From: a virus
Length of the DNA: 54,576 nt
IMG/VR virus record: IMGVR_UViG_3300001528_000116
Coordinates: 1 to 54,576 of that record
Reading direction: 5' to 3' (one strand)
Shown one piece after another: positions 35,820 through 37,668 of the stretch (position 1 is its first letter; each line of letters opens with the position of its first letter). Position numbers and translations under genes: made by a program. The notes under the pieces are model-generated. The model did not search any database and was not told the DNA's origin. It saw only the letters and a list, made by a program, of their open reading frames with translations.

Positions 35820-37668
35820 TTAATCATCTCCGAAATGTTTCTTTGTAACCTCAATAGGAAATTCTTCAATTTCACTCGCCCACAGACACGCGCCATCACC
35901 GTGAAGCATTTCCCATATATAAGGAAAGCCTCCAATGCCATCAAACAGGCTTGCCATTGTGCAGTCAGAGCCACAGCATAGAGAGAGCTTTCTCAGCACA
36001 TAAAACCATGGTGGAATTGCTATACTGTTACCCAGAGCTTTGTATCGTGCGCTATCGGTACTGTCCTTTGTCTTGCCCTTAGAATCCGTCCAGTTTCCTA
36101 TGAGCGTCCAGTAGTCAGGAAATCCCTGCAATCGTTCACACTCTAAAGGTGTAAGACGACGAACAATATAATGCTGGTTCTCAATACCGGCTACGAGCAT
36201 ATCATTATTTGCATCCTGCCCGGTGTAACTTCCGGGGTGTGAATTTGCCATAAGAGGCCCAGTAACCTGTTGATATGTAACGCATTGTGGATCTTTATAA
36301 TCTCTCGCCAAAAGGGTAGATGTCTGATCTTTTGACACAGTCATATATTCTCCAGTTGTCATACTATATACATCCCCCCCCTTAGCATTTTGAGGAGTGG
36401 TGTTAATGTTCTGTACTATCAATGTTTCGCTCCCCCCCCCATACACGCCACCTGTGTTTTTTAGTGTGGCGGAAGTTTGATTTTGCGTATATTTGTCATA
36501 CGCATCTTGTGAATAGCATTCAAGTATCATTGGAGTGTTGCCCCCCCCTGTACCCATTCGACCGCTTAATGTCTGAATAACATTATCTTCTGACAGCTTT
36601 ATGCGGCTGTCGTTTGGGTGGTTTTCTATTGCAATAGCACCTACGGCTTGCATAACCGCGGGGCGATCGATCGTGTTTAGTGTGTAGCTCACATCCTCAG
36701 TCCAGCCTTTACCGTTACAGCCGGCCGTGTCGGCTCGATCTATGCAGTTACCCTGAATACAGATAGCTGGCTGAACAGTCGCTATGCCACCTTGGTTTTT
36801 ACTCGGATCAGGGGATGAGGTATCTAATGTTTTGGCAACATCGACCGCTCGGCATCCGCTATGTGGGTTTGCTGATTTCATGCTGTTAGATGCTAAACTA
36901 TCAAAACTGTATGCTGTGCTTTTAGGTTGAAAGAGGGTCTGATCCTGCAATGTGGAGAGAGTAGCACTTTTGTCCTCTTGTATGAGAGCGCCTTTTCCTC
37001 CTCCTTCACACCCGGAACGAATTTTAAGAGTGCAAGGTATCAAGCCCCCCCCCTTTGCTTGCCAGTAATTTATCATTTCCCAAAGAGCCTGTTTTAACAT
37101 CGGTGGCAGCTCCTTCCCACGGCGTTCCGCACGTCTCAGAATGCCCAGACACGCTTTCTCGCTCAAATAATATTTCTGGTGCGGACAATCCTCCAAAATC
37201 TGCGATAAGTGCGATTCTACGTCTACGCTGGGGGACTCCCCAAAACTGTGCGTCGAGAACTCTCCACGCAAGACTCCATTGTCCTCCCACATCAGTGAGG
37301 CATCCGCTTGTTGGCCATCCGTTTTTAGGCTTAGGAATAGCGGGGGCTTCTTTGACGACGACCTTGATCGTTTCTTGGAGGACGACGCCGAAGTCCTCGC
37401 CTTTGTTTGAGCTGAAAGCTCCGGGGACGTTTTCCCAGACCATAAAGCGCGGTCTGATACTTTTGCCTGTTCTTCCTCTATCTGCATCTGCCTTTCTCAT
37501 CTCCTTAATTATTCTTAATTGCTCCATGAACAGCCCTGAGCGCTCTCCTTCAAGCCCTTTACGCTTTCCGGCGATGCTTAAATCCTGGCATGGGCTGCCT
37601 CCGATAATGACATTGACGGGTGGAGCAGTAGCCCCATCAATAGCCGTTATATCTCCTAAATGGATCAT
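35820..37668 (-). CDS. C5-cytosine DNA methyltransferase, circularly permuted, frame interrupted at a G9 tract
   Basis: Frame A (from ATG 37668, after GGAGG) carries LGDITAI (III), GGSPCQDLS (IV), ENVPG (VI) and QRRRR (VIII). Frame B carries RRLTPLECERLQGFP (IX) and GNSIAIP (X), then LFDGIGG (I) and ASEIE (II) in the last 45 codons (35820-35957). The frames join if the G9 at 37045-37053 is G8. Confidence 0.7.

Follow-up and report, generated by a model that had tools for sequence, protein, structure and literature searches.

A split methyltransferase gene with motifs I and II at its end

The window, by which we mean the whole 54,576-nt stretch of viral DNA analysed here, carries on its minus strand, from 37668 to 35820, the conserved motifs of a C5-methyltransferase in the order III-IV-VI-VIII-TRD-IX-X-I-II, as read from the sequence (TRD, target-recognition region). 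A first-pass annotation had described this order as a single gene beginning at motif III behind a GGAGG ribosome-binding site. Every motif lies where it was placed, on the minus strand, and the start signal is present (GGAGG at 37680-37676, ATG at 37668), but in this sequence the gene is not one ORF: the coding sequence comprises two overlapping ORFs of 214 and 555 aa, split at a run of nine G residues (G9, 37053-37045). The features of the locus, all on the minus strand, are as follows.

37676..37680, minus strand: ribosome-binding site GGAGG, 7 nt upstream of the ORF1 ATG at 37668 (read from sequence)
37024..37668, minus strand: ORF1 (frame A, 214 aa), with motifs III (HLGDI), IV (PCQ), VI (ENVPG) and VIII (QRRRR), then a weakly conserved tail
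37590-37588, minus strand: catalytic Cys codon, in an ORF1 N-terminal region that reads MIHLGDITAI and then GGSPCQDLS
37434-37420, minus strand: motif VI, ENVPG
37230-37216, minus strand: motif VIII, QRRRR
35820..37487, minus strand: ORF2 (frame B, the +1 frame, 555 aa), with the B-domain, the target-recognition region and motifs IX, X, I and II
37083..37244, minus strand: B-domain, ORF2 residues 82-135, FGESPSVDVESHLSQILEDCPHQKYYLSEKACLGILRRAERRGKELPPMLKQAL, +1 frame, spanning motif VIII and the tail of frame A
37045..37053, minus strand: G9 homopolymer, at the junction of the B-domain/frame-A tail with the target-recognition region
36374..36548, minus strand: G8, G9 and G8 tracts in the target-recognition region (36548-36541, 36440-36432, 36381-36374), all in frame in the window
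36117..36161, minus strand: motif IX, RRLTPLECERLQGFP
36012..36032, minus strand: motif X, GNSIAIP
35958..36011, minus strand: linker between the former C-terminus (the helix that follows motif X) and the former initiator Met
35823..35957, minus strand: relocated AdoMet-binding segment, ending ..VTKKHFGDD (PF00145 profile 2-42)
35957-35928, minus strand: motif I, MASLFDGIGG
35885-35856, minus strand: motif II, LWASEIEEFP
35822-35820, minus strand: TAA stop codon, after the ORF2 end ...KKHFGDD

ORF1 stops 19 nt past the G9 tract and overlaps ORF2, which lies in its +1 frame, by 464 nt. SD-like sequences precede the equivalent start in 103/132 related loci. From its N-terminus, ORF2 consists of a disordered stretch over motifs VI-VIII, the helical B-domain and a modular target-recognition region. 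Motifs IX and X come next, and a linker of 24 aa connects them to motifs I and II, after which the ORF stops.

Both ORFs are recognised by the C5-methyltransferase profile PF00145 (cut-off 22 bits), ORF1 over profile positions 46-130 (87.7 bits) and ORF2 over positions 252-322 (46.0 bits), and a homologue consisting of a single ORF (P0098) reaches 105.6 bits on TIGR00675 (cut-off 100.65). Motifs IV (PCQ Cys), VI (ENV), VIII (QxRxR), I (FxGxG), II (acidic), IX and X were all found and are invariant in 113 homologues, including the R, P, E, C, E, R, Q and G residues of motif IX. For a close single-ORF homologue (P0009), AlphaFold gives pLDDT values of 85-95 over residues 1-170 and 420-536, tail included, and low confidence (pLDDT below 50) in the target-recognition region. 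The best Foldseek matches are M.HhaI, M.MpeI and M.HaeIII, with E from ~1e-6 to 3e-5 for the best structure of each and an alignment that spans the colinear III-VIII block only. On these sequence and profile grounds we infer that this phage locus encodes a stand-alone C5-cytosine DNA methyltransferase with predicted methylation activity.

Motifs I and II have moved behind motif X across a phage family

Circular permutation is a textbook example of how proteins gain new topologies, and the C5-methyltransferases (M.HaeIII, M.MpeI, M.SssI) are a model for testing it. At the present locus, the last 51 residues match PF00145 profile positions 2-42 and ORF1 begins at position 46; with these residues put before ORF1 in silico, the PF00145 match runs unbroken over positions 2-130 (116.5 bits). 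Because positions 2-130 are matched without gap or overlap after re-joining, the break between motifs II and III is a clean one. As in the topology known as Type B, the protein now begins between motifs II and III, nothing is missing or repeated, and the old C-terminus is fused in frame to the old N-terminus (X-linker-I-II in one frame, the window enzyme itself being two ORFs). The first about 45 residues of a canonical enzyme, a strand-helix-strand-helix unit comprising motifs I and II and holding AdoMet, have moved behind motif X, leaving a protein that starts at motif III.

The permuted order is a family trait and not a misassembly, because the same junction occurs in independent assemblies and in cultured phages. 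Among 236 retrieved proteins, 124 are single ORFs that start M-x-H-L-G-D-I-T and end X-linker-I-II, which bears out the proposal of the first-pass annotation that the AdoMet-binding N-terminus had been transferred to the C-terminus. The order is found at about 125/134 loci; IX-X-I-II is in one frame at 109, with a GNS[IV]-to-[LF]FDG distance of 24 aa in 105 of these. The X-to-I junction is present in about 648 clusters (50% identity, E<=1e-30), in the best 150 of which the match is one stretch at the C-terminus, and the cultured Faecalibacterium phages FP_Toutatis and Lelie share the permuted order. The family's hosts are gut Clostridia (Oscillospiraceae, Lachnospiraceae, Faecalibacterium), in whose phages and prophages it resides. 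A megablast search of the locus against 50,697 phage records returned no match, relatives being detectable at the protein level only.

The relocated segment is under purifying selection (pN/pS 0.21, compared with 0.44 for motif X and the linker), its SLFDGIGGF, W and E residues are invariant in 113 sequences, and in the P0009 AlphaFold model it forms strand-helix-strand-helix at pLDDT about 79-93. Judged by these model confidence values, it is most likely that the segment folds into place within the Rossmann-like catalytic domain. That the tail is instead the dead leftover of a truncated second gene copy, or a chimeric misassembly, both of which the first-pass annotation had named as ways in which it could be wrong, has a negligible probability: we found nothing in its favour, and it is already contradicted by the low pN/pS and constant 24-aa linker, by the invariant residues, by the confidently predicted structure and by the recurrence of this junction in cultured phages as well as hundreds of independent assemblies.

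Close relatives with the canonical order exist in the same clade (L154 from Gallintestinimicrobium propionicum, L155 from Brotocaccenecus cirricatena and L137 from Bengtsoniella intestinalis) and are 60-70% identical over III-VIII. Unlike the window gene, they have I-II at the N-terminus and end after motif X. They share with it the sequence ..WASEIE.FP...VTK..FP.M.HLGDI.., which in them runs across the breakpoint with the continuity that the first-pass annotation had expected of canonical enzymes. The old initiator Met is retained at the permuted junction (T-M-A-S-L-F-D-G), and the new start Met is an internal Met of the canonical relatives (..HFPDM.HLGDI..). A permutation by tandem duplication followed by truncation of both ends is consistent with these data; no duplicated intermediate with I-II at both ends was present among the 236 proteins and 165 loci.

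Comparison with natural and engineered permutants

Rearranged motifs are known from plant DRM2 (“domains rearranged”), in which VI-X precede I-V. DRM2, which is among the Foldseek matches, resembles the present family in being a natural C5-methyltransferase with rearranged motifs, and differs in being eukaryotic, in its breakpoint and in its lineage. Motif X also precedes motif I in M.BssHII, M.Alw26I, M2.Eco31IC, M.Esp3I, M2.BsaI and 22 other natural C5-methyltransferases in REBASE. The first-pass annotation had contrasted the locus with M.BssHII as the one permuted C5 enzyme it knew of; the difference in breakpoint holds, while the uniqueness of M.BssHII does not, more natural permutants having been known by 2018. 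All of these break in the variable region (PMC5944983). The M.BssHII group is cut there (Type H/J), with IX-X before I-VIII, whereas the cut here lies between II and III. Membership of the window gene in the BssHII type (Type H) was considered and rejected: the N-terminus is at motif III and not in the variable region, III-VIII come ahead of the TRD and of IX-X, and I-II alone has changed place.

The closer counterparts are laboratory constructs. Type B topology was reported to be fully active when engineered and absent from natural enzymes (Slaska-Kiss et al. 2018, PMC5944983). Among the permutants engineered, those of Type B had the highest activity, cp62M.MpeI equalling the wild type in extracts and cp58M.SssI being highly active in vivo, and the authors suggested that Type B might weaken AdoMet binding (PMC5944983). 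The present family shares with them a new N-terminus between II and III and old termini joined by a short linker. Unlike those constructs of short CG-specific enzymes, it is natural, large and phage-borne, and has a long modular recognition region.

Poly-G tracts set the reading frame

The site at which the window gene is split is a family-wide hot spot for G tracts, lying +169 to +180 nt from motif VIII; tracts of G7 or longer cluster also at -77 nt. Deleting one G from the G9 tract yields a single ORF of 615 aa. The tract is G9 in the window and in L001, G8 in L085 (95% identical to the window) and G7 in L005. A Gly-rich variable region had been noted in the first-pass annotation; it is there, and what underlies it are G8-G9 homopolymers. 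Tracts 1 and 2 of the target-recognition region differ in length in L005 and L085, and the third is G8 in the window, L005 and L085, with a 2-nt insertion just upstream in L085. Between genomes that are 94-95% identical, short indels fall almost only in poly-G tracts, and Toutatis has G9 where Lelie has G14 at 98.9% identity. Intact single ORFs carry G7 in 32/34 tracts; split or broken genes mostly have G8-G9. The split at a G tract, the selection on the +1 frame (see below) and the several natural permutants already known had all escaped the first-pass annotation.

Homopolymers make methyltransferases phase-variable in the phasevarions of Campylobacter, Neisseria and Haemophilus, and poly-G tracts are known in Campylobacter phages. 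As in phasevarions, the tracts here (G7-G14) lie inside the gene, differ in length between near-identical genomes and set the frame by their length, and we infer poly-G switching in these phages. Unlike phasevarions, the family belongs to gut Firmicutes phages and has several tracts per gene, with one tract picking which of two conserved overlapping frames joins the enzyme; within-population switching is here hypothetical. In the window, the G9 tract decides which upstream frame joins the rest of the enzyme, giving a two-ORF state in which ORF1 has III-IV-VI-VIII and ORF2 the B-domain, the target-recognition region and IX-X-I-II.

The split might also be an artefact of homopolymer sequencing or assembly, the true gene being G8 and a single 615-aa ORF, as the effect of removing one G and the G8 of L085 would suggest; the three broken tracts of the window (in the C5 methyltransferase, an N6 methyltransferase and ORF 34095) are, moreover, all G9 and all mended by the loss of one G. 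We regard such an error as quite improbable, given that the independent assembly L001 has the same G9 and the same two-ORF state, that other G8 tracts in the window are not over-called, that a different subset of tracts is out of frame in each relative, that cultured phage genomes themselves differ (G9 versus G14), and that the database holds 72 homologues of the ORF2 type.

A conserved +1 frame overlaps motifs VI-VIII

In a codon alignment, frame A has a pN/pS of 0.22-0.33 up to motif VIII. Beyond it, across 73 non-redundant loci, frame B is the constrained one (0.34-0.36, versus about 1.6 for frame A) and variation lands on frame-B third positions; the 42 loci in which frame A is open end to end give 0.34 for frame B versus 1.67 for frame A. 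Both frames are constrained over about 19 codons. Stops are absent from the +1 frame in 72/73 loci, against 2.25 expected, and in 51/73 an ATG falls no more than four codons from the point where this frame opens, so that an alternative frame both open and under purifying selection, as in a nested gene, lies over this part of the enzyme. The canonical-order relatives share this nested ORF, with its LSQILE...KYYLS...GILRRA..RGK.LP domain. From these sequence patterns, the +1 ORF is most likely translated, alone or as the N-terminus of ORF2.

The AlphaFold model of ORF2 has pLDDT 33-47 over residues 1-88 and 73-91 over residues 90-145, with three helices predicted in the B-domain. Neither the B-domain nor the ORF2 N-terminus found a match in Pfam, NCBIfam or PDB sequences, whether one sequence or a 34-sequence profile served as the query; the only match was a weak one to PHROG 16143 (E 7e-4). 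Aligned by hhalign to the part of Dcm that follows motif VIII (with the Dcm sequence confirmed from PDB 3lx6), the B-domain is colinear over 46 columns at a probability of 1.3%, which is not significant, and the likeness is a lead and not a result.

We rejected a general model of one programmed frameshift beyond motif VIII, since the downstream part is in frame 0, +1 or +2 depending on the locus; a single-point frame switch is also disfavoured by the dual constraint over about 19 codons. A broader alternative is that conservation of the +1 frame reflects programmed frame switching and not a separate nested gene, through slippage (DNA or RNA) or ribosomal frameshifting at the two flanking G tracts, which predicts isoforms with the B-domain where motif VIII would otherwise be. 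The clusters of G7 or longer tracts at -77 and +169 to +180 nt fit this alternative, as do natural single ORFs that read from frame A into frame B and on into the rest of the enzyme (P0030, P0042, P0086-P0094) and FP_Toutatis gp14, in which III-IV-VI is fused to the B-domain. Against it, the +1 frame is stop-free upstream of the first tract as well (72/73 loci) and usually opens with a nearby ATG, many intact single-ORF loci, such as L004, keep the B-domain without any G tract, and the predicted isoforms would be without motif VIII. We consider frame switching in place of a nested gene rather unlikely. A further proposal, which we advance tentatively and at less than even odds, is that a translated +1 gene over VI-VIII, present throughout the clade in canonical and permuted genes, supplies a helical domain that is an obligatory partner or regulator of the enzyme, and that the two flanking hypermutable poly-G tracts switch between one-chain, two-chain and B-for-VIII isoforms.

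A possible two-chain enzyme

Some C5-methyltransferases are split, M.AquI having two polypeptides per enzyme. The two ORFs of the window jointly contain all the motifs, with III-VIII in ORF1 and the TRD, IX, X, I and II in ORF2. The alpha gene of M.EcoHK31I contains, in a different frame, the coding sequence of the beta chain (PMC2836561), a likeness to the overlapping other-frame chain described here. Unlike the window locus, M.EcoHK31I has a beta chain that supplies motif IX and an alpha chain with the rest in canonical order; in the window the domain encoded by the overlapping frame has no motif assigned to it, the motifs are permuted, and a complex of the two chains is hypothetical. Another parallel is a Type B permutant that was cut again between VIII and the TRD, the fragments of which complemented each other in E. 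coli (PMC5944983) and correspond to ORF1 and ORF2. By analogy with this artificially split permutant, the ORF1 and ORF2 chains may assemble into an active enzyme; alternatively, G9 is an OFF or altered phase variant.

The window copy could, then, be a decaying pseudogene or an OFF variant whose two ORFs form no active enzyme. Its frame is interrupted between VIII and the TRD, a G9 tract also breaks the N6 methyltransferase next to it, and 27/109 related loci carry further frame breaks; because about a quarter of related loci do so, many copies may be inactive. Apart from this, however, ORF1 and ORF2 are intact over their 214 and 555 codons, 13 loci and many database proteins show a complete “B-linked” state, and the engineered permutant split at the same place complemented in E. 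coli (PMC5944983). An inactive window copy is therefore on the unlikely side in our estimation. The reading that best joins these observations, to which we assign a probability of roughly 0.8, is a natural Type B phage C5-methyltransferase, in the two-ORF state at G9, with a conserved +1 ORF that is most likely translated.

Implications

Our literature search, in which coverage was incomplete, found no description of natural Type B permutants, no nested ORF in phage C5-methyltransferases, no poly-G tracts in these phages, and no account of a B-domain/poly-G frame-switching cassette. The permuted enzyme would methylate cytosine in the ordinary way, and its methylation would probably shield the phage DNA from host restriction.

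The most active of the engineered topologies, Type B, had been reported missing from nature; this family shows that nature made it many times, in abundant gut phages. Because close canonical relatives exist, AdoMet affinity, stability and evolutionary path lend themselves to direct comparison between the two topologies. For genome annotation, the consequence is that pipelines assign a wrong frame to part of each such gene, or report it in pieces. For the phages themselves, members of one gut population may differ in their methylation.

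A permuted methyltransferase gene in two overlapping frames

The first-pass annotation had claimed a circularly permuted C5-cytosine methyltransferase with motif order III-IV-VI-VIII-TRD-IX-X-I-II (TRD, target-recognition region), and all motifs were found in that order on the minus strand of the window, with the GGAGG ribosome-binding site it had named lying 7 nt upstream of ATG 37668. Its reading of 35820-37668 as one gene holds for the motif order but not for the single ORF, as the window carries two overlapping ORFs; removal of one G yields a single ORF of 615 aa.

Motifs and ORFs of the window gene, in order along the minus strand (37668-35820)
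Motif III: HLGDI
Motif IV: GGSPCQDLS
Motif VI: ENVPG
Motif VIII: QRRRR, followed by a long variable region
Motif IX: RRLTPLECERLQGFP
Motif X: GNSIAIP
Motif I: MASLFDGIGG, behind motif X
Motif II: LWASEIEEFP, then ..KKHFGDD and stop
37668-37024, minus: ORF1 (frame A), 214 aa; stop 19 nt past the nine-G run 37053-37045
37487-35820, minus, +1 frame: ORF2 (frame B), 555 aa; 464-nt overlap with ORF1

The first part of the gene corresponds to positions 46-130 of the Pfam profile PF00145, the later part to 252-322, and the last 51 residues on their own match positions 2-42. When these residues are set before ORF1 in silico, the match becomes continuous (2-130) and the score rises from 87.7 to 116.5 bits, which places the breakpoint exactly between motifs II and III, nothing being lost or duplicated. 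No motif I-II remnant lies upstream of the permuted start in the window. Small hydrophobic ORFs of 52 and 99 aa (37670-37828 and 37828-38127, minus strand) sit between the methyltransferase and the DNA polymerase A gene (38097-40088). The annotation's observation and main interpretation of this gene stand.

Permutation and constraint across the family

Searches with ORF2 and with a close homologue, P0009, retrieved 236 proteins: 124 are single ORFs, running from M-x-H-L-G-D-I-T at the start to X, a linker and I-II at the end; a further 72 resemble ORF2; and the canonical motif order does not occur among these best matches. With a 126-residue query over IX-X-I-II, 1.84 billion representatives yielded 648 clusters (50% identity) at E<=1e-30, and the best 150 of the 648 all match the query in a single C-terminal stretch. 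In the 134 loci that were anchored in IMG/VR and GTDB genomes, motif I lies behind motif X in about 125 and the order is canonical in 6; the hosts belong to the gut Clostridia (Oscillospiraceae, Lachnospiraceae, Ruminococcaceae). Two phages in culture, Faecalibacterium phage FP_Toutatis and phage Lelie, have the same X-to-I junction, in genes whose annotation consists of fragments labelled ‘DNA methyltransferase’ or ‘hypothetical protein’. The permuted order is thus a family trait.

It had been suggested as an alternative that the I-II tail is a functionless remnant, which is contradicted by the constraint on this segment. Its pN/pS is 0.21; motif I residues S, L, F, D, G, I, G and F and motif II residues W and E are invariant in 113 sequences; and IX-X-I-II share one frame in 109 loci, in 105 of which the GNS-to-LFDG linker measures 24 residues. 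Past motif II, the ORF continues for a median of 15 residues. By the usual evolutionary criteria, the relocated segment is predicted to be functional. An AlphaFold2 model built from a 113-sequence alignment for P0009, a single-ORF version of the window gene (~79% identical over III-VIII), has pLDDT 85-95 at residues 1-170 and 420-536, a range that takes in the C-terminal strand-helix-strand-helix (490-530), and below 50 in the frame-A tail and target-recognition region. Its best Foldseek matches are M.HhaI, M.MpeI and M.HaeIII, with plant DRM next. From the confidence values we infer that the I-II tail would dock into the Rossmann-like fold.

The natural permuted C5 methyltransferases listed by Slaska-Kiss et al. 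2018 (PMC5944983) are M.BssHII, M.Alw26I, M2.Eco31IC, M.Esp3I, M2.BsaI and 22 more from REBASE. In every one the cut falls within the variable region, whereas the window's family is cut between II and III; M.BssHII does break elsewhere, as the first-pass annotation had stated. Engineered ‘Type B’ permutants, which start between II and III, were the most active of all those made, cp62M.MpeI being on a par with the wild type when assayed in cell extracts (PMC5944983). The window's family is a natural Type B, the type missing from that natural set, and our literature search, whose coverage was incomplete, found no later paper on such enzymes. The ORF1 and ORF2 arrangement is that of an engineered Type B permutant cut again between VIII and TRD, the fragments of which complemented each other (PMC5944983).

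In canonical-order members of this clade, the breakpoint is spanned by ..WASEIE.FP...VTK..FP(D/E)M.HLGDI..; the Met inside this stretch is the start of the permuted genes, whose end reads ..VTK.HF(P/G).., and a nearly invariant Met, the former initiator, is retained at the junction, T-M-A-S-L-F-D-G. Under the route proposed earlier, two tandem copies would fuse and both outer parts be lost. Since an intermediate carrying I-II at each of its ends was not found among the 236 retrieved proteins and 165 loci, this route is only consistent with the data.

Poly-G tracts and possible module exchange

Coding-strand G runs in the window fall off normally to length 6, are absent at length 7, and reappear at lengths 8 (n = 2) and 9 (n = 5). 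Against L005 and L085, independently assembled relatives 94-95% identical to the window, short indels occur almost only in the G8/G9 tracts.

Tract lengths in the window, L005 and L085
37045-37053 (C5 methyltransferase): G9, G7, G8
36541-36548 (C5 methyltransferase): G8, G7, G9
36432-36440 (C5 methyltransferase): G9, G7, G9
35230-35238 (N6 methyltransferase): G9, G9, G8

FP_Toutatis (NC_047915.1, 6463-7874) and Lelie (PP479942.1) are 98.9% identical here, yet their tract between VI and VIII is G9 and G14, respectively, and neither is in the single-ORF state. Across 107 family genes, G7-G11 runs number 130, while runs of C, A and T number 9, 2 and 0, respectively; relative to motif VIII, the G7-G11 runs concentrate at positions -77 and +169 to +180 (nt). 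Tract length goes with the frame state of the locus.

G runs by frame state
Intact single ORF (69 loci): G7 x32, G8 x1, G11 x1
Complete two-ORF (13 loci): G7 x8, G8 x9, G9 x4
Further frame breaks (27 loci): G7 x26, G8 x27, G9 x21, G10 x2, G11 x1

This pattern appears to be the signature of hypermutable tracts. The window's G9 at the split may instead be a homopolymer miscall, a reading sustained by the fact that an identical -1 change mends all three broken tracts in the window. As judged from its tracts, the window copy of the predicted enzyme is in a two-ORF state set by poly-G.

The adjoining N6/N4 DNA methyltransferase (PF01555; 35069-35819, minus) is split into 200-aa and 46-aa ORFs at G9 35230-35238, and G8, as in L085, gives an intact 249-aa enzyme. 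At 33546-34095 (minus), G9 33701-33709 parts a 140-aa from a 71-aa ORF; with one G fewer these fuse into a 182-aa protein ending ..KIMALKNAGWKVKDIADEMHMEPQAVSNAIWRY.. A further G9 (31042-31050 in the coding-strand sense) precedes by 26-34 nt the likely ATG (31016) of a large primase- or VirE-like gene (28611-31016), just ahead of that gene's AAGGAG ribosome-binding site, and could therefore act on expression rather than reading frame.

In the target-recognition region, one block at ~36637-36893 is replaced in L005/L085 by unrelated sequence of another length within genes otherwise 94-95% identical, and the region consists of repeated modules whose number varies among homologues (370-775 aa). 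Together these suggest module swapping, which could change specificity.

A +1 reading frame under selection

Many homologues match the first 130 residues of ORF2, which lie in the +1 frame over ORF1 motifs VI-VIII. In a codon alignment of 73 non-redundant loci (<88% nucleotide identity), variation falls on frame-A third positions up to motif VIII; all three positions are nearly fixed over the next ~19 codons (I-A-L-V-A-D-F-G-G..A-P-E-I-L-F-E); and beyond these it falls on frame-A first, that is frame-B third, positions. There frame B is near-invariant (S.LSQILE..P.PKY.LSAKAC.GIL.RA.RRGK.LP..L..AL) and frame A highly variable.

pN/pS in frames A and B
N-terminal region: A 0.22, B 1.41
Segment after motif VIII: A 1.63, B 0.36
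Same segment, only loci whose frame A is open throughout (n = 42): A 1.67, B 0.34

The +1 frame is stop-free over ~112 codons in 72 of 73 loci, where 2.25 stops are expected from synonymous shuffling; a mean of 4.7 stops is seen in the 57 codons before this stretch. It opens just behind a conserved TGA, 86-91 codons ahead of motif VIII, with an ATG at most 4 codons away in 51/73 loci, and in single-ORF loci ends 56-87 codons past motif VIII. Canonical-order relatives, isolate genomes included, also have this ORF, which makes it older than the permutation.

Modelled with AlphaFold, the window's ORF2 has a disordered stretch at residues 1-88 (pLDDT 33-47) and three helices at 90-145 (pLDDT 73-91); the helical domain, ORF2 residues 82-135, is here called the B-domain. 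The same DNA read in frame A is the low-confidence linker of the single-chain P0009 model. Sequence and profile searches, which covered Pfam, NCBIfam and PDB sequences, matched the B-domain to no family of known function, and its colinear alignment with the stretch of Dcm that follows motif VIII lacks significance.

In the proposed scheme, junction tract 37053-37045 would set which upstream frame joins the TRD-IX-X-I-II part. At reference length frame A would be joined, giving one chain, with the nested +1 ORF as a separate small protein; one G more would join frame B, giving ORF1 and ORF2, the state of the window, of L001 and of a further 11 loci; at any other length neither frame would be joined. 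A second tract, between VI and VIII, could link III-VI to frame B, a linkage seen in FP_Toutatis gp14 (III-IV-VI plus B-domain) and in single ORFs (P0030, P0042, P0086-P0094) running from III-IV-VI through the B-domain, in place of motif VIII, to TRD-IX-X-I-II. Compared with P0098, the Gemmiger lineage reached this reading by two compensating changes: close to a short G run one base was gained or lost, and sequence behind the B-domain was deleted. A canonical-order relative in the complete isolate genome of Bengtsoniella intestinalis BP47G (NZ_CP133584.1, 2850-4535) has I-VIII, the nested ORF and TRD-IX-X in three different frames with no G run >=7, which points either to a pseudogene or to frame changes that arise without homopolymers.

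Since the B-domain is kept even in loci without any tract, such as L004, the simplest reading is that the +1 ORF would be translated in its own right, its product being a candidate subunit, split-state assembly domain or regulator. The known precedent for an overlapping-frame C5 methyltransferase subunit is M.EcoHK31I, where a different frame within the alpha gene codes for the beta chain (PMC2836561). The window gene's family has a conserved overlapping reading frame.
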